From an uncultured virus (IMG/VR IMGVR_UViG_3300002834_000023) (Duplodnaviria; Heunggongvirae; Uroviricota; Caudoviricetes): 64,000 nt of DNA. The notes below the pieces were generated by a model, which saw only the letters and a program-made list of their open reading frames with translations, searched no databases and had not been told where the DNA came from. Positions within the stretch are counted from its first letter, which is position 1, and each line of letters opens with the position of its first letter. Below, in pieces: positions 340 through 60,951 of the stretch. A program made the translations under genes and the position numbers. The DNA lies in IMG/VR virus record IMGVR_UViG_3300002834_000023. One strand, 5' to 3'.

Positions 340-1749
340 ATGTTAGATTTTACAACGATAAAAAAGATAATTAAAGGAACAAAGTTTGAAAACCAAACAT
401 ACTTTGTTGGTGGTTGTGTTCGTGATGAAATCATGGGCGTAACACCTAAGGACTATGATATTGTTGTATCATTACCAAATGGTGGAATTGAACTTGCTGA
501 ATTTATTACAAAAGCAACAAACTGTTATGTTGATGGTAGCAACCCAGTTGTATATCCAACTTATGGTACAGCCATGTTCACAATCAGAACCGATGAAAAT
601 TTAAAGAATATTGAATTTGAATGTGTTCAAACAAGAAAAGAACAATATCATTCAGATTCAAGAAATCCTGATTGTGTGTTCGGAACATTGGAAGAAGATG
701 CTTATAGACGTGATTTAACAATCAATTCATTATATAAAAATTTATCAACAGATAAAATTCTTGATCCAACAGGTAAAGGATTAAAAGATATTTCAGATAA
801 ATTAATTAGAACAACATCTATGCCTCATATTATTTTTTCGGATGATCCATTAAGAATGTTAAGAGTTATTCGTTTTGCGACAAGATTTGGTTGGGATGTT
901 GATGAAGAAACTTATCTTGGAATTAAAGAAAATGTTGAAAGAATTAAAATCATTTCGATGGAAAGAATTAGAGATGAAATCAACAAAATGTTATTATCTC
1001 ATACCCCATCCATTGCGTTTGATATGTTACATGAAACAGGGTTGTTAGAAACAATTCAACCACTTTGGATAGTTTCTCAATTAGTTGGATTATCACAAAA
1101 TAAGTTTCATTTTGGTGATGTTTGGGAACACACTCTTGATGTTCTTGATAAATCAAAACCAATACTTGAAAATAGATTGGCGGCATTATTACATGATATT
1201 GGAAAATATTATACAAGAAGTGTAGATGAAAATGGAAATGTTCATTTTTACCAACATGAAAAAATTGGTGCAGAAGCGACTAAAACAATCATGTTTAACA
1301 TGAAATATTCAAATGATACTATTGATAAAGTTTCCAATGCAATTAAATTTCATATGAAAACAAAAGATTGGGGACATGACATTAAAATTAAATTATGGAA
1401 AATTCGTCAGTTTCAATATGATGCAAAAGATAATTTAGAACTGATTTTAGATCTTATTGATGCTGATAACCGTTCTCATGCAAAAGAATATTGTTTACCA
1501 ACACAGGTAGAAAACATCAAATCTATATTGAAACAAATGAAGAATGATGGTCTTGATTGTTCAAAAATTAAATTACCTGTTAATGGAAATGATATTATGC
1601 AACATCTAAAAATAAATGGTGGACAAATATTAGGTAAAATTATTGAACATTTAATTAAAATGTATATTAGAAATCCGTTAAAATATAAAGATTTTAACAC
1701 ATGTTTAAAAGAAGCCAGTAGTTATTATAAACAAAATAAACAAAACTAA
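340..1749 (+). CDS. cca: CCA-adding tRNA nucleotidyltransferase with HD domain
   Basis: GGCVRD, DYD, RRDLTINS, DDPLRMLRVIRF class II NTase motifs; HD domain (HTL...LLHDIGK). Confidence 0.9.
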   Translation: MLDFTTIKKIIKGTKFENQTYFVGGCVRDEIMGVTPKDYDIVVSLPNGGIELAEFITKATNCYVDGSNPVVYPTYGTAMFTIRTDENLKNIEFECVQTRKEQYHSDSRNPDCVFGTLEEDAYRRDLTINSLYKNLSTDKILDPTGKGLKDISDKLIRTTSMPHIIFSDDPLRMLRVIRFATRFGWDVDEETYLGIKENVERIKIISMERIRDEINKMLLSHTPSIAFDMLHETGLLETIQPLWIVSQLVGLSQNKFHFGDVWEHTLDVLDKSKPILENRLAALLHDIGKYYTRSVDENGNVHFYQHEKIGAEATKTIMFNMKYSNDTIDKVSNAIKFHMKTKDWGHDIKIKLWKIRQFQYDAKDNLELILDLIDADNRSHAKEYCLPTQVENIKSILKQMKNDGLDCSKIKLPVNGNDIMQHLKINGGQILGKIIEHLIKMYIRNPLKYKDFNTCLKEASSYYKQNKQN

Positions 1750-9774: not shown

Positions 9775-9999
9775 CGGCTTATAGTATAATGGTAGAACGC
9801 AATCAATATAATATTCTTGTCCGATGAAAAAAAGAGTGTTATAAACAGGGTTGAGGTGCGATTGTGAAAGAATGAACGAATATACGAAAACATGAATACA
9901 GATTGTGTATGGGGTTGCAAACCCAGAAAAATTATGATGTGTAAGTAAGATGGACAAGTAAAACAAGTAATTAAGGTTCAAATCCCGCTAGGCTGACAA
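9775..9999 (+). ncRNA. tRNA-ended RNA with about 150-nt insert
   Basis: Acceptor CGGCTTA/TAGGCTG, D-loop TAGTATAATGGTAGAAC, GGTTCAAATCC T-loop, ends ACAA; directly after promoter 9716. Confidence 0.55.
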
Positions 10000-12657: not shown

Positions 12658-13428
12658 ATGGAGTTATCCACTAAATATCCAAGAACATATCATTTACCAT
12701 TTTCGACAGGATTGAGTAACGATGATAGGAAAGTTGATGATGATTGGAAACAATACATCATCAACCAACCTATTGTTATTACAGAAAAATTAGATGGAAG
12801 TAATTCCTGTATCACAAGAGATGGGGTATATGCTCGTTCTCATGCCACATTTACTGAAAACCTATGGGATAGAAACCTTACTGAAAAAGGTGGCTTATAT
12901 GATAAAATAAAACACTCAATCGCTAAACATGAATGTATATATGGGGAAAATTTATATGGTATTCATTCTATTGAATATAATAAATTACCTGATTATTTTT
13001 TCATGTTTTCTGCCAGATATAATGATAATTTTTATTCATGGGAAGATACAAAATACTTATGCGAACTATTAGATATTTCATTAGTACCAGTTCTATATGA
13101 GGGAAAAGTGACTTCATGTGAACAATTAGAAACAGTTATTACTGAATTAATGGAACATGGTTCAGAATATGGCGATACCATTGAAGGTGTTGTTGTTAGA
13201 AATGTTAATAAATTTCATGTTAATGATTTTTCAAAGTATGTTTGTAAATATGTGAGAGAAAATCACGTTCAAACTGATGCTCACTGGCGAAAAAACTGGA
13301 AAAGAGCAAAACTTGTTTATGAATATGAAAATGATGAAGAAGATTTGAGATGGAAAAATTATCAAAATGAAATTACAGAACATGGAAGATATTCTGTGCC
13401 ATATTTAGGTAATACAACTTATTATTAG
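12658..13428 (+). CDS. RNA ligase family protein
   Basis: KYPRTYHLP, TEKLDGSN (motif I), YGENL, EGVVVR, KYVRE. Confidence 0.85.
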   Translation: MELSTKYPRTYHLPFSTGLSNDDRKVDDDWKQYIINQPIVITEKLDGSNSCITRDGVYARSHATFTENLWDRNLTEKGGLYDKIKHSIAKHECIYGENLYGIHSIEYNKLPDYFFMFSARYNDNFYSWEDTKYLCELLDISLVPVLYEGKVTSCEQLETVITELMEHGSEYGDTIEGVVVRNVNKFHVNDFSKYVCKYVRENHVQTDAHWRKNWKRAKLVYEYENDEEDLRWKNYQNEITEHGRYSVPYLGNTTYY

Positions 13429-14970: not shown

Positions 14971-15759
14971 TTGATACTTAAAAACTTAAATCACTATGAT
15001 GTGTTAATTAAAAAATTTAACACATTTGACAATAAAAAAATCTATAAAAATTATTTTTCACCCCGACACATTATCGGAAATTGTTGTTTTCTCTATGATC
15101 AAATTAAACCAAAAACCCCACAACATTTTTTAGATGAATATTTGAACTTAGCAAATACAAGACTATATCATGATCCAGAATATATTAAAAGATATGGAAG
15201 AACTGAATTAGAACTCATAGAGCTTGCAAAAGAATATCGAGAAAGAATCTTACAAAATTATCCGACAGAAAATATTACAGAAGAAGATTGTTTAGATGCG
15301 CTCATCAAACATATAATTATTGAAACATTTGATGGGAAAAGAGTAGAACAATCACTTTCTGATTATTTGCAATATAAAGGTATGAAAATGTATCAACTCG
15401 ATTTTGATGATGACTCAATCTATGGAATAGATATGATGGGTTCAGTCAATGGATATGATACAGTTATTCAATTAAAACCTCATACAACATTTCTTGGAAA
15501 TGCCAATCAATCTCTTATAAATGATAGATTGAATTTTATTCAAAAGGAAATCAAAACAAAACAAAAATATCCATCAGTAGCATATTATAGATATATTTTG
15601 TATTATAAAGAGAAAAATGGAAATGTTCAGTGGTTATCTAAAAAAACCGAAACAGGGTATAAATTTCTTTTTAATATAGATGAATTGATTAATATTAAAA
15701 CTGGGGAAAATTTATTAACCATCAATGATTTTAAAAAATCAATTAATTTATTTTTTTAA
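14971..15759 (+). CDS. Putative PD-(D/E)xK restriction-type endonuclease
   Basis: ETFDG..E...D..YGID...IQLKP; between two methyltransferases. Confidence 0.5.
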   Translation: MILKNLNHYDVLIKKFNTFDNKKIYKNYFSPRHIIGNCCFLYDQIKPKTPQHFLDEYLNLANTRLYHDPEYIKRYGRTELELIELAKEYRERILQNYPTENITEEDCLDALIKHIIIETFDGKRVEQSLSDYLQYKGMKMYQLDFDDDSIYGIDMMGSVNGYDTVIQLKPHTTFLGNANQSLINDRLNFIQKEIKTKQKYPSVAYYRYILYYKEKNGNVQWLSKKTETGYKFLFNIDELINIKTGENLLTINDFKKSINLFF

Positions 15760-28151: not shown

Positions 28152-28360
28152 AGTTGTAGTTTTTTAATTGTTATTATTGATACAAAGATATTAAAAATTA
28201 TGTAATAATAATTTTAACTGGATGTTAAAAAATGTTAAAATTAACATTTTCATATTATGTTAAAATAATTCATATTATATTATTTGTAAATATTTTAACA
28301 TATCATTGAACTGTTAAAATTGGTTAAGATATGTTAAAATTATATCTTAACCAATTTATA

Positions 28361-28540
28361 TTATTTTACATTGGTTCCGAACCTTTCATTAAAGGCTTTT
28401 ACAATTTCATCTCGTTTGTAGCTGTCCCAGTAGATTGATATTGCCGAACACCCAGGAAAGTGATACGCCATATCGCTTTTGGTTAGCCGTTTGCCAGCTG
28501 CAATACGATCCAGTGTCCATTTACTTAGTTGTGGTTTCAT
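28361..28540 (-). CDS. Hypothetical protein (59 aa, not in ORF track)
   Basis: MKPQLSKWTLDRI...; starts 1 nt after the upstream stop. Confidence 0.55.
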   Translation of the reverse strand: MKPQLSKWTLDRIAAGKRLTKSDMAYHFPGCSAISIYWDSYKRDEIVKAFNERFGTNVK

Positions 28541-28541
28541 A

Positions 28542-28781
28542 TTATTTGAAGTTTAAGCGGTTTTGTTCTCTGATCAGTTTGCGGAAGGCAGCCGTAACTT
28601 CAATGATAGTCACGTGTTCCATATAATACTTTGTAGCAATTTCCCCGCCCTTCAGGTTTACAGCCCGATAACCCCTGACATGGTTTTCGTTGGTATTATA
28701 CACCTCTATGTTAAATACGTGGTTCCCATTGTCAAGGTTTTTAACCTCTATTGTTCTACGTTTTGTTGTGATAGCTGCCAT
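28542..28781 (-). CDS. Hypothetical early protein
   Basis: ATG 28781 after promoter 28846. Confidence 0.7.
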   Translation of the reverse strand: MAAITTKRRTIEVKNLDNGNHVFNIEVYNTNENHVRGYRAVNLKGGEIATKYYMEHVTIIEVTAAFRKLIREQNRLNFK

Positions 28782-30492: not shown

Positions 30493-30602
30493 AACATTTC
30501 AGGATATGTTAAAATATGTATAAAAATTTTCAATAACATCCAGTTTAAAATAATTCAGATAATTTTTATTACATTTGTATAAACAATTAAAAACAAGTGA
30601 TT

Positions 30603-41953: not shown

Positions 41954-41999
41954 CATCCAGGTTTTGTAAGTTAAAAATAAAAATAGTAATTTTGTAGAG

Positions 42000-42563
42000 A
42001 TATATGACTATCCAAATGTGAGATGTTGATTGTACTTGCATTTTGTACCGAACTACAAATTAAAAGTCTTTTGTAGCTGATAGAATAGATAGGTATCTTT
42101 TTTAGAATCTGTTGTACGTTACAGGAACGTATATGTTTACACTTTGCATCTTGTATTCTGACAAAGGAATAAATAGTGTTGTCAGGGCGAAGGTTAAAAC
42201 AGGGTTAAAGTGCGTGACTTACTAATAATGGATAGTCTTTAGGGTACGGAACCCCTCTTGGAATATTGTGAAGTACGGATTTATCCGTTTGGGCAAGTGA
42301 ATAAATTAAAAAGTTTAATCCCATGCCGTACTGACAAGCGAAACGGATGTAGTTATCAAAGTAGGGTACGTCCATATCTGAAATTTTAATGAAAAAATAA
42401 TAGTACGCTTAATAATAGAAAGAAAATTTGTAAATATTGAGCAAAGGTTTTGTATCTGATAAAGTTTGATTTAGTCTTACATAATCACTACAATTTGGGA
42501 CGTTACAAGTTTAGTTAATCCAATTTTCCGTAACATCTATGTGAAAATTGGATTGATTTTTTT
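42000..42563 (+). ncRNA. Large structured non-coding RNA candidate (about 550 nt)
   Basis: Own promoter (41950), no ORF, GACTATCCA/TGGATAGTC long-range helix, interleaved helices, terminator at 42516-42563. Confidence 0.6.
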
Positions 42564-44572: not shown

Positions 44573-44758
44573 TATTCTGTTTTTTCATATTGCTTTTTTT
44601 CTCACCCATGCAAGTAGAATTATCCTGCTTGTGTGGGTGATCCGTTTTATGTATGTACTCAAATGAGTATAATGGTATGTTAAAATATGTATAATTTTTA
44701 ATTTTAACATCCAGTTTATATAATATTAGATAAATTTTTGTACTTTTGTATTGTAAGA

Positions 44759-44921
44759 GAGTGAAGACAGTGTAATGTTTATGGGAATGTGAAATACCCC
44801 TCGTGGCTTTGTGCGTAAATTGGTCGAGGGTAAATAGAATAAAGCACTGTAGCCATTAATAGTGGAAATTATTAAAGGTAGCGTTGGTTAATCGGGGGTT
44901 CGACTCCCCCTTCACTTACAA
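44759..44921 (+). ncRNA. tRNA-like RNA (acceptor stem + T-arm, no D or anticodon arm, about 163 nt)
   Basis: GAGTGAA/TTCACTT acceptor stem, perfect GGGGG-TTCGACT-CCCCC T-arm, ends ACAA; directly after promoter 44704. Confidence 0.7.
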
Positions 44922-46174: not shown

Positions 46175-46414
46175 ATGAGTAGAATGAAAAATTTATTATT
46201 ACCTTATGCGCTTATGGCAATGAGTATGGGCAGCGAAGGTTTATTTATGGGAAATGGTCTTATAGGAAAAAGAACCCCCTCAAAAACTGTTCAAAAGCCT
46301 ATTCCTGCGGGTGCTAACAAATTTGAGTATGATGACGGTTTTTCCTGTTATGCTCTTAATCAAAAAAATGCTGACAGAAAACATAATAATTTTTTGAAAA
46401 ATGAAAACAAATAA
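46175..46414 (+). CDS. Hypothetical protein
   Basis: 79-aa ORF. Confidence 0.65.
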   Translation: MSRMKNLLLPYALMAMSMGSEGLFMGNGLIGKRTPSKTVQKPIPAGANKFEYDDGFSCYALNQKNADRKHNNFLKNENK

Positions 46415-46577
46415 CAGATTTTACTATAAAGATAATTGGTGTGGTAATATTCATTACTTTGATACCATTGAGGAGGCACGTGAGAGTGCCAAAAGCGAGG
46501 ACGGTGTAAACATTACCATTTTTGATAATAATGGTGTGGCTGAATTTGTAGAAGCCAACGGATATGTTTATCCATAA
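46401..46577 (+). CDS. Hypothetical protein (58 aa)
   Basis: MKTNNRFYY...; ends 3 nt before motif 46581. Confidence 0.55.
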   Translation: MKTNNRFYYKDNWCGNIHYFDTIEEARESAKSEDGVNITIFDNNGVAEFVEANGYVYP

Positions 46578-46639
46578 ATTTTAACATCCAGAATTTAGAA
46601 AGTAAAAAATAAAGTAGTATCTTTGTATTAGATTTAATT

Positions 46640-46901
46640 GTTGAACCGAGAGTGGTTCCGTTAGAGAATGGTATTTTGCCGGCACTAACCCGATAGAACA
46701 GGACCGTTGAGGTCCGAATGGGTACGAAAACGAACATCCGCTGGCGTATATATTAATGTAGGTTTGATATGGCACGACAGCCCCCGATTGCCGATATGCG
46801 GGGCATACTGACCGCCCGAACATAGTGCGCACAAATTTTTTATGCGGTCGCCGAACATCACCTAACACCCCTGACCATTCAAAGACGGGACCACTTTTTT
46901 T
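46640..46901 (+). ncRNA. GC-rich structured non-coding RNA candidate (about 260 nt)
   Basis: Own promoter (46581); 14-bp closing helix 46648-61/46885-98, further helices, ends in T tract. Confidence 0.7.
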
Positions 46902-46965
46902 ATAAAAAAGGTTTCCCCCATACCTTTTCAAAAATGGGGGTGGTGTGTGGGTATTATTATTCTTG

Positions 46966-46992
46966 GGTTGAATTTACATTCAACCTTTTTTT
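46966..46992 (+). terminator. Intrinsic terminator
   Basis: GGTTGAAT...ATTCAACC + T tract. Confidence 0.6.
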
Positions 46993-47113
46993 AACATTTT
47001 CCATATGTTAAAATATGTATAAAAATAAATTTTAACATCCAGCACAATAAAAATTACATAAGATTTATTATTTTTGTATTAAGATTTTGAACAATAATTT
47101 AAAACATACGAAT

Positions 47114-57623: not shown

Positions 57624-57875
57624 TACAATCAGGAAAATTTAAAAAGCGACTAAAAGCATTGGAAGAAAGAACGGTAAAGGAAAATCAAATAAAAGTATTT
57701 AAACATAAAATACAACAAATAGAAAAAATTGAAGAAGAAATTCCAGAAGATATAATTCAAGTTAATGGTATTGAGATATACATAATTTAATGTGTTTAAT
57801 TAAACTTAAACACATTTTTTAACATCCAGTTTTAGAAACTTAAATATATTTTTTGTATATTTGCATTGAATTAAT

Positions 57876-57980
57876 AAGGGAAGATATTCGGTATATGGGG
57901 AATCACAGCAAGCCATATATTCCAAACTGACAAGTGGGCATCAAGGCTGATGAGGGTATGTAGAATATCTCCTTTTTTTA
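57876..57980 (+). ncRNA. Small structured RNA or leader candidate (about 100 nt)
   Basis: After promoter 57819; AGATATTC/GAATATCT closing helix, TATATGG/CCATATA and CATCA/TGATG hairpins, T tract. Confidence 0.45.
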
Positions 57981-59809: not shown

Positions 59810-60071
59810 TATGACAATGATACATTATCCTGTTAAACAAAAGACATATAAGTATGCAAATACTAAATGTGATAAATTTTCTCATCTTGATGAAAGTGGT
59901 AACATGATTTATATACCAAAGAAAAAGTTTAACAGTGATAAAGAAGCCATTGAAGAAGCAAAACGAATAAATGCGCTTCCAAAAACAATTCACAAGGTTG
60001 TCGCATATAAATGTAGAACATGTCATTTATGGCATGTTGGTAGAACTAAAAAAGAATTAAAACATGAATGA
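59793..60071 (+). CDS. Hypothetical protein (Zn-binding)
   Basis: AYKCRTCHLWHVG. Confidence 0.65.
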   Translation: MICLNNMTMIHYPVKQKTYKYANTKCDKFSHLDESGNMIYIPKKKFNSDKEAIEEAKRINALPKTIHKVVAYKCRTCHLWHVGRTKKELKHE

Positions 60072-60951
60072 AGATAAAGAATTTAAAACATTAGGTGAAA
60101 GAATGAACTACTATCGAAGTATGGGTGAAATGAAAATCACGCCCAAAAGTTATGTATTAGCGATGCTGGATGGTAGGTCATTCTCGAAGCGTTGGAAAAA
60201 CAAATTGGATAAGCCATTTGATGATGGTTTTATATCTGATATGAATGAAACAGCAAAATATCTGTGTGAAAATATTGCTGGTTGCAGACTTGCATTTGTT
60301 CAAAGTGATGAAATATCCTTGTTCCTTTGTGATTATGAGAATGAGGAAACCCAGCCATGGTTCGATTATCGAATGACTAAAATGTTATCTTTATCAGCAG
60401 CAATGGCAACTGGTAAGTATAATCAATTAAGGTTAGTAAGAGAATTACAAGACACTATAAATGATAACCAGATATTTGTTGATGAGGAAGATGAACCTTA
60501 TAAACAAATCAGAAATGGGAAAGAAATATTAATACCACCTGGTAAAGTTTATACAATTTATGACCAAATAAGGGATTTCAAATTATCTGAATTTGATTCT
60601 AAATTTTGGTCTGTACCTGAAAGAAATGATGCTGTTGCATGGTTTATATATCGTCAAAATGATTGTATTCGTAACAGTGTACTTCAATCTGGTTACACTT
60701 ATTTCTCACACAAAGAACTGATGAATAAGAAAACTGATGAGATAAAAGATAAACTATTTTTTGATAAAGATGTTAATTGGAATGAATATTCTGATGGAAA
60801 AAAATATGGTCGGGTTATTTATAAAGTGATGACATCTGCAAATAGAAGTATATGGATTATCCACAATGCACCTGTATTTAAAGGTGAAGATGGATCAAAC
60901 TGGTTGAAAGAGTTCATAACAGAAATTCCAAAAACACAGTTGTCAAATTGA
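60064..60951 (+). CDS. tRNA(His) guanylyltransferase Thg1-like protein (3'-5' polymerase)
   Basis: LDGRSFSK, QSDEISL, FDSK, RQNDCIRNS, KYG. Confidence 0.88.
   Translation: MNEDKEFKTLGERMNYYRSMGEMKITPKSYVLAMLDGRSFSKRWKNKLDKPFDDGFISDMNETAKYLCENIAGCRLAFVQSDEISLFLCDYENEETQPWFDYRMTKMLSLSAAMATGKYNQLRLVRELQDTINDNQIFVDEEDEPYKQIRNGKEILIPPGKVYTIYDQIRDFKLSEFDSKFWSVPERNDAVAWFIYRQNDCIRNSVLQSGYTYFSHKELMNKKTDEIKDKLFFDKDVNWNEYSDGKKYGRVIYKVMTSANRSIWIIHNAPVFKGEDGSNWLKEFITEIPKTQLSN

Follow-up and report, generated by a model that had tools for sequence, protein, structure and literature searches.

Why should a phage genome of 29% G+C place a block of about 260 nucleotides (nt), half of it G or C, behind the same promoter that drives its many small protein genes? 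Could the product of such a block be the RNA itself? The block in question occupies positions 46640–46901 of a 64-kilobase (kb) stretch of DNA from an uncultured virus of the Caudoviricetes (IMG/VR record IMGVR_UViG_3300002834_000023); this stretch, analyzed at its full length, is referred to as the window. A first-pass annotation of the letters alone had proposed a stable early non-coding RNA of unknown class, acting as a polymerase decoy of the 6S type, a protein sponge or a ribozyme. We designate the block cassette (d), one of five cassettes, (a) to (e), that follow a full copy of the phage promoter and contain no open reading frame (ORF). Our analysis leads us to regard (d) as probably a real RNA gene. 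The fuller reading, which we favor with slightly less than even confidence, is that (d) is a gene in its own right, that its product is a stable, highly folded non-coding RNA some 250–270 nt long and of an undescribed family, and that this RNA works as a decoy or scaffold.

The promoter provides the first line of evidence. At up to 3 mismatches the box AAATTTTAACATCCAG is found 47 times in the window, compared with 4.37 copies expected, and 43 of these copies lie on the + strand, 4 on the − strand. At 42 of 47 exact AACATCCAG sites the element TAnnTTTG follows 24–26 nt downstream, and we take this combination as a full promoter. Behind 37 of the 42 full promoters an ATG-initiated ORF of at least 40 amino acids (aa) begins after 17–37 nt (median 31), whereas the other five front the non-coding cassettes. 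The common layout can be written as (T)TTAACATCCAG, 24–26 nt, TAnnTTTG, with examples at 46576–46626 and 47027–47077, and the ORFs behind these promoters are preceded by an A-rich leader. TAnnTTTG is described in PMC7366714 as the −7 element of the Bacteroidota primary sigma factor. Because the phage promoters carry this element, the host is probably a member of the Bacteroidota. The upstream box is a phage-specific addition; occupying the place of the Bacteroidota −33 element, it may be the site at which a phage factor redirects the host polymerase. A literature search for the box gave, among the matches listed, only primer-type ones. Given the position of its promoter copy, the (d) transcript would start near 46631–46634. 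The first-pass annotation had put a promoter at 46581. The repeated phage promoter does overlap this place, but the sigma-70 site read there (TTAACA-18-AAAAAT) belongs to a pattern that occurs at chance level (14 found, 14.0 expected).

Does (d) itself look like the gene of a folded RNA? Its G+C content, already noticed at first pass, is 0.49–0.51 over 46650–46899 and 0.16–0.35 in the flanks (100-nt segments). The same composition characterizes the transfer RNA (tRNA) arrays of G001, an IMG/VR record that uses the same promoter (0.50–0.53), both genomes standing at 0.29. The two ends of (d) pair to form a clamp: helix P1 has 15 contiguous pairs, four of them G-U, and leads through a 3/3 internal loop into the 7-base-pair (bp) helix P2. 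Between the −7 box and P1 lie 21 nt, and at the other end seven T follow directly on the GC-rich part of the helix. Thus the terminal helix with G-U pairs and the final T tract, both listed in the first-pass annotation, are borne out. When the two ends were shuffled, 2 of 5000 trials gave a terminal helix of at least 15 pairs; none of 652 places with matching geometry in the rest of the window did, the largest helix there having 14.

Could the block nevertheless encode a protein, or belong to a family that is already known? On the + strand (d) has no usable ORF, the longest being 34 aa with a TTG start. The first-pass annotation had named two findings that would speak against its proposal, a match to a known family and a conserved, translated ORF at 46581–46931 on the − strand; we looked for both and found neither. 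For the − strand ORF (116 aa) no relative was found among the 63–203-aa proteins of a 5.8-billion-protein collection, and no Pfam family matched. Nor did any Rfam family match. With Rfam 15 (4227 models) there was no match in the whole window at the gathering thresholds, and none at E≤10 when 46630–46905 was searched alone (276 bases). A search of 46400–47100 gave 8 weak matches, all under threshold. Two of these, both on the − strand and far under threshold, overlap (d) (U4atac, 15.6 bits, E 4.2; ARRPOF, 10.4 bits, E 6.9). The remaining six are found at the margins of (d) or beyond them, the best being Chlorobi-1 on the − strand, with 19.8 bits against a threshold of 50. ARAGORN found no tRNA or transfer-messenger RNA (tmRNA) in the window, and none at 46640–46901 with introns allowed and the threshold lowered; neither a T arm nor a D or anticodon arm appears in the predicted fold of (d). 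A retron was also considered: a terminal inverted repeat is present, but the 80 ORFs that made up the Pfam domain scan include no reverse-transcriptase domain. A riboswitch or cis-regulatory leader was rejected, as between (d) and the next gene lie the T7 run, another terminator and a new promoter.

Folded as RNA, (d) reaches a minimum free energy of −81.6 kcal/mol (z −2.72; 2 of 200 shuffles as good), compared with a z of −1.15 for the − strand of the region. The better fold of the + strand and the four G-U pairs of the clamp both favor the + strand as the one transcribed. The fold comprises the clamp and two branched domains (Table 1), and all the internal helices named in the first-pass annotation are present in it. 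Pairing at the tips of P6 and P7 is ill-defined (probability 0.24–0.57). Paired positions are 62% G+C, whereas unpaired positions are 34% G+C, A-rich and near the genome background; this contrast is partly circular, because energy-based folding favors G-C pairs. An 8-nt palindrome, GTGCGCAC, was considered as a dimerization site and dropped, since about one such palindrome is expected by chance in 262 nt.

Table 1. Positions of the features discussed in the text, in coordinates of the window.
Feature	Position	Strand	Remarks
Upstream promoter box AAATTTTAACATCCAG	46576..46591	+	Exact copy of the repeated box
AACATCCAG box of the (d) promoter	46583–46591	+	
TATCTTTG	46619..46626	+	Matches the Bacteroidota −7 element TAnnTTTG
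P1, 5′ strand GAGAGTGGTTCCGTT	46648..46662	+	Pairs with 46884–46898; mean probability 0.98
P1, 3′ strand GACGGGACCACTTTT	46884..46898	+	
P2 GAATGGT/ACCATTC	46666–46672 / 46874–46880	+	7 pairs; probability 0.98
Domain 1	46678..46745	+	P3 around ACCCG/TGGGT, hairpin GGACC-GTTGA-GGTCC, small CG-AAAA-CG hairpin
P3 GCCGGC/GCTGGC	in domain 1	+	Pair probability 0.95
Hairpin GGACC-GTTGA-GGTCC	in domain 1	+	Pair probability 1.00
Domain 2	46757..46867	+	P4, P5, P6, P7; probabilities 0.53–0.99
P4	46757–46768 / 46857–46867	+	
P5	46770–46773 / 46850–46853	+	
TAGGT..GAT/ATC..ACCTA arm		+	Pair probability 0.53–0.88
P6 GCCCC/GGGGC	in domain 2	+	Pair probability 0.79
P7 GACCGC/GCGGTC	in domain 2	+	Pair probability 0.99
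CGAACAT, copy 1	46731..46737	+	Single-stranded joint before the P3 3′ strand
CGAACAT, copy 2	46817..46823	+	Just 3′ of the P7 5′ strand
CGAACAT, copy 3	46852..46858	+	Spans the end of the P5 3′ strand
T7 run behind the GC-rich part of P1	46895..46901	+	Putative first termination point
Interleaved 7-nt complements AAAAGGT/ACCTTTT and CCCCCAT/ATGGGGG	46907..46941	+	
Terminator hairpin and T7	46965..46993	+	9 pairs, loop of 4, TTTTTTT; compact
Cassette (a)	9775–9998		Promoter-driven tRNA-like RNA (predicted); 7-bp acceptor-like stem, ~150 extra nt
Cassette (b)	41997–42562		566 nt; no + strand ORF over 43 aa; z −2.67
Cassette (c)	44757–44921		tRNA-like; acceptor stem GAGTGAA/TTCACTT, perfect T arm GGGGG-TTCGACT-CCCCC; z −2.45
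Cassette (e)	57868–57980		~105 nt; terminal stem GGGAAGATATTC / GAATATCTCC into T7; z −1.61
CCA-adding enzyme	340–1749		PHROGs/Pfam
RNA ligase	12658–13428		PHROGs/Pfam
Thg1-like protein	60064–60951		PHROGs/Pfam

How might such an RNA work? On the reading that we favor, host RNA polymerase would start at the phage promoter (46576–46591 and 46619–46626), near 46632, and the RNA would fold into two branched domains, shut by the 7-bp and 15-bp helices formed from both ends. The GC-rich part of P1 together with the T7 run would stop most transcription at about 46901, and the hairpin at 46965–46993 would catch the remainder. The clamp would hide both RNA ends from exonucleases; because both are protected in this way, the RNA should be long-lived and would accumulate. 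During infection it would then retain a nuclease or RNA-binding protein, of host or phage origin, as a decoy or scaffold. We consider this role the most likely one because the heptamer CGAACAT, present three times in (d), can be read as a repeated binding site. Three of the four + strand copies of CGAACAT in the window fall inside (d), each in or beside a predicted single-stranded joint that adjoins a GC helix, and we infer that they are putative protein-binding sites displayed on a rigid scaffold. An antisense target within the window was not found: none of its five ATGTTCG sites is a start codon, and no stretch complementary to (d) exceeds 11 nt.

Are there sequences elsewhere that resemble (d)? 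No search returned a homolog. Blastn against GenBank phages gave no match to (d). One 20-mer of (d) occurs in IMG/VR at a single locus (L001), a chance match in GC-rich DNA, and a search there with three neighboring proteins found no relatives. BLAST of (d) against the IMG/VR record G001 and against G002 gave only matches of 14–17 nt (E at least 0.56). Against 191 loci from the promoter scan, blastn and nhmmer reached a best E of 0.15, and nhmmer against all collected loci found none. Among 401 sampled Bacteroidota genomes, 11 had BLAST matches, none longer than 43 nt; most fall in the T/A tract that follows the RNA, and a 40-nt one lies in unrelated GC-rich sequence. A three-motif pattern retrieved 110 loci from IMG/VR, none of them alike by nhmmer (best E 3.9), and two further exact words of (d) had no match in genome contigs. 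A covariance model built from the single sequence of (d) recovered, from G001, the metagenome-assembled genome (MAG) G003 and the 121 metagenome loci listed for the promoter, only a 46-nt hairpin (locus L200); relatives in further metagenome stretches may have escaped this search. Patterns taken from cassette (a), aimed at closer relatives, found nothing in IMG/VR or in genome contigs, and then one chance-looking match. GC-rich stretches in related loci were also considered as relatives of the RNA and rejected, one being a protein gene and another a bacterial chromosomal region.

Several points weigh against the interpretation given above. The whole case for (d) stands on one sequence; because no homolog was found, no pair has the support of covariation. 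The z-score, a check proposed at first pass, is favorable on the + strand but ordinary for this genome: 4 of 64 other + strand segments of 262 nt reach −2.79 or lower (mean −0.81, standard deviation 1.09). The minimum free energy structure has an ensemble frequency of 0.0001 and is one among many near-equal folds, and several inner helices have probabilities of 0.24–0.59. The long-range helix that precedes the T7 run is unlike a classical terminator hairpin. As for the CGAACAT repeat, it was spotted post hoc, some 7-mer occurred three times in 19 of 2000 shuffles, so that the repeat is modestly unlikely, and no protein is known to bind this heptamer. We conclude that the clamp, the composition and the promoter context are strong single-sequence evidence and that the inner fold is not, because its z-score is ordinary, its minimum free energy structure degenerate and its inner pair probabilities low. 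The strongest fold z-score among 65 sampled 262-nt segments (−4.16) belongs to 28301–28562, a divergent promoter region that separates a − strand from a + strand gene block.

Does the phage promoter drive other RNAs? Cassette (a) has at its ends a D-loop-like TAGTATAATGGTAGAAC and a T-loop-like GGTTCAAATCC, without an anticodon loop, and neither ARAGORN nor Rfam calls it. It has a homolog at 377–583 of contig L154 (− strand), with the same promoter and the same downstream gene, and between the two the acceptor-like stem and a second helix are kept through 4 compensatory changes. Because of these compensatory pairs, we take it that the phage promoter drives RNA genes, at least one of which appears to be under selection for structure. 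Cassette (b), of which the part 42126–42345 is homologous to (a), is a candidate for a large non-coding RNA; none of 100 shuffles folds as well, and Rfam gives no match. In the tRNA-like cassette (c), an insert of about 75 nt replaces the D arm and a 12-bp hairpin with a GGAA loop the anticodon arm. The Rfam tmRNA model matches only its T arm (E 1.4e-4); as a tmRNA, (c) was rejected, being too short and having no tag by ARAGORN. Cassette (e), likewise without an Rfam match, repeats the design of (d) in miniature.

Two links, both weak, connect (d) to these cassettes. P1 begins with GAGAGTG, like the acceptor-like stem of (c) at 44757, a word found 7 times on the + strand of the window. In addition, the 48-nt stretch 46694–46741, inside domain 1, resembles 9840–9886 of (a) with a score of 32, compared with 17.7 ± 2.4 for shuffles (0 of 500 as high), 25 for the next best place in the window and a maximum of 29 in G001 (4776 segments). 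However, a module profile made from (a), its homolog and (b) recovers (a) and (b) and, at E≤100, misses (d), and a covariance model of (a) and its L154 homolog finds in the window only (a), neither (b) nor (d). We therefore keep (d) out of the (a) family: profile and covariance model miss it, leaving the pairwise 48-nt likeness, and the shared letters fold differently in (d), where they form a local hairpin.

Could (d) instead imitate the end of a tRNA? P1 would then mimic an acceptor end and serve as bait or substitute substrate for a tRNA-acting host nuclease or enzyme, and (d) would form a set with (a) and (c) on which RNase P and three phage enzymes (CCA-adding, Thg1-like and RNA ligase) act. 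The heptamer shared with (c), a cassette that ends in a canonical T arm and a 7-bp acceptor strand, and the 48-nt likeness to the tRNA-like (a) are consistent with such a role. So is the presence of a tRNA repair kit, consisting of the three enzymes just named, in a window where ARAGORN finds 0 canonical tRNA genes. A precedent is the YrlA of M. smegmatis, a tRNA-like Y RNA which, according to PMC4201824, is cut by RNase P and receives CCA. Against this, (d) has none of the three arms of a tRNA, neither the covariance model of (a) nor the module profile finds (d), the two sequence likenesses are thin evidence, and the repair genes lie 13–46 kb away. We consider this account unlikely. A bolder version, to which we give still less credence, would make (d) the first known example of a novel type of phage RNA, clamped and of two domains, whose acceptor-like end enters the tRNA processing and repair pathway of RNase P and the phage enzymes while the three exposed CGAACAT sites bait a sequence-specific host RNase or an RNA-binding defense protein, (a), (b), (c) and (d) forming an RNA-based counter-defense set.

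Might the block act as DNA rather than as RNA? It could be a replication origin, a packaging or recombination site, or inert foreign DNA of higher G+C content that came to lie behind a promoter. The island is unique in the window, the sole other 150-nt segment of at least 45% G+C underlying an ORF; (d) has no relatives; and three direct copies of CGAACAT could be protein sites on DNA. The inverted repeat, however, needs 4 G-T pairs, which are workable in RNA but not in a DNA cruciform, and the heptamers are irregularly spaced, at 86 and 35 nt. The start of P1 so close behind the −7 box and its end in a T run also speak for transcription, and a foreign origin finds no support in the GenBank phages, in the short Bacteroidota matches or in the − strand ORF, which is without a protein relative. 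A role as DNA, or as inert DNA, is thus unlikely.

A cis-acting function at the end of a transcription unit was also weighed: (d) would stabilize or terminate read-through of the upstream small genes and insulate the next unit. No further cassette separates (d), or (b), from a strong terminator and the conserved element T6AACATTT..ATGTTAAAATATGTATAAAAAT (42564 and 46993). But (d) has a full promoter copy of its own, an ordinary protein gene stands before the third unit end of this kind (30493), and a two-domain fold of 260 nt far exceeds what a terminator needs. This function is very unlikely. Slightly harder still to credit is a new class of ribozyme, whether self-cleaving or catalytic in another way. 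An RNA of this size with a compact fold of two domains could be one, and AACAGG..GTTRARGT.CG is common to (a), (b) and (d); no ribozyme family matches at E≤10, however, no conserved core can be defined without homologs, and the shared module was not recovered by the profile.

6S RNA, small and abundant, sequesters a protein; it has a long closing helix and folds as a rod with a closing stem, a large central bubble and a terminal stem. As a decoy of this type, (d) would mimic an open promoter. The long closing helix would suit such a role, as would a redirection of the host polymerase to promoters of the phage class, and AACATCC (46733–46739) is identical to the core of the promoter box. This word was rejected as a promoter mimic: it has 10 other, non-promoter copies on the two strands, which makes one copy in (d) unremarkable. 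The predicted fold, a single-sequence prediction, is branched in both its minimum free energy and its centroid form, without a rod or central bubble, and no Rfam 6S model matches. Of the three functions named at first pass the 6S type thus fits worst, because the fold is a branched two-domain one, and we regard it as highly improbable. The remainder of that proposal, a stable RNA of no known class, agrees with the promoter copy, the lack of an ORF, the clamp followed by the T tract and the lack of an Rfam family. Finally, a protein encoded at 46581–46931 on the − strand is close to refuted: the frame is open for 116 codons, but it starts with TTG, overlaps the + strand promoter in a window where nearly all genes are on the + strand, has neither relative nor Pfam family, and lies in a GC-rich island that would have few stops by composition alone.

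Where would the transcript of a (d) RNA gene end? The terminator scan omits the T7 run at 46895–46901 because its loop limit is 8 nt. We infer that the hairpin at 46965–46993 is the back-up end both of the cassette and of the transcription unit. Between the two lie the interleaved complements of 46907–46941, part of which folds as a hairpin. They may form alternative hairpins or an H-type pseudoknot, and would be part of the RNA only upon read-through of the T7 run. The conserved element T6AACATTT..ATATGTTAAAATATGTATAAAAAT, with the palindrome TTAACAT-N8-ATGTTAA, is found at 30493, 42564 and 46993 of the window, as a variant at 28243, and also at 15182–15239 of contig G003:C28 and in others. 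It stands directly behind strong terminators and ahead of the next promoter, apparently delimiting transcription units.

What kind of phage carries (d)? It is a large, AT-rich one whose promoters have a Bacteroidota −7 box; its genome is seen as the 64-kb window, in which nearly all ORFs are on the + strand. No close relative of the window was found among GenBank phages, either by blastn or by megablast of the 12 kb around the RNA. PHROGs and Pfam name phage-type functions, including a PurA-like synthetase and several DNA methylases, and the three ORFs downstream of (d) are of 97, 66 and 145 aa. The same promoter occurs in G001 (274,786 nt; 29.0% G+C), with 15 exact matches; its 26 tRNA genes sit in arrays. 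It is present as well in the 17.5-kb MAG-binned contig G003:C28 and in at least 121 metagenome stretches, many from short contigs. By sequence comparison these are distant users of the same promoter, because by tblastn G001 shares merely 4 of the 192 window ORFs. Two DNA sequencing runs, both labeled termite gut metagenome, contain the sequence; the first may be its source, and the second has identical pieces at low depth that leave 46571–46972 uncovered. No RNA run is among the sequencing runs listed as containing it.

Structured phage RNAs other than tRNAs are few, and most have no function assigned to them. In this uncultivated large phage, the strong promoter that drives many small genes also stands before five non-coding cassettes. 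If real and abundant, (d) would be a compact and easily synthesized candidate for a new RNA fold and for RNA-based handling of host proteins. If it is not expressed, it would counsel caution, in that good-looking folds in GC islands need comparative or expression support.

How, then, does (d) compare with RNAs that are already described? RNA C and D of phage T4 and the packaging RNA of phi29 are phage-encoded stable RNAs with paired ends. To our knowledge the function of the T4 RNAs has long been without an explanation. They and the phi29 RNA belong to other phage groups and differ in size from (d), which gives no Rfam match at E≤10, although whether Rfam holds models for them was not checked. 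A comparison with tmRNA is invited by the 5′ and 3′ ends of (d), which pair into a helix readable as an acceptor stem, and by the true T arm of the neighboring (c); (d), however, has neither a T arm nor a tag reading frame, and ARAGORN reports none. The large phage-associated RNAs GOLLD and ROOL are 500 nt long or more. Like (d), RNAs of this kind are reportedly long GC-rich intergenic sequences free of ORFs in AT-rich genomes, with an ornate branched fold and a function that is unknown, and their host phages are rich in tRNA-related functions, as here. Cassette (d), by contrast, is about 260 nt long, has no Rfam match and, without homologs, no consensus. Discovery pipelines for RNAs in GC-rich or conserved intergenic regions are reported in PMC5737381, PMC8723152, PMC6429828 and PMC11109978; RNAs of the kinds compared here are also the subject of bioRxiv 10.1101/2024.12.08.627333.

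The Y RNAs of the YrlA type are the last group to be considered. PMC4201824 describes them as tRNA mimics bound by Ro60/Rsr and present in 22 bacteriophages, and gives as their marks a Ro60/TROVE gene within a few kb on the same strand, mimics of the T and D arms, and the motif GNCGAAN0-1G. With these RNAs (d) shares its predicted paired ends and a genome with RNA-repair genes. It differs in having no T or D arm and no Rfam YrlA match at E≤10, in the lack of a TROVE/Ro60 gene among the 80 ORFs scanned, and in its CGAAC sites, none of which agrees exactly with the motif as given there. Cassette (d) thus has the defining features of none of the compared systems. It is a candidate for a new RNA family of which no second member was found, and its reading as a non-coding RNA is reasonable but unproven; more striking than (d) alone is the promoter-driven set of RNAs to which it belongs.

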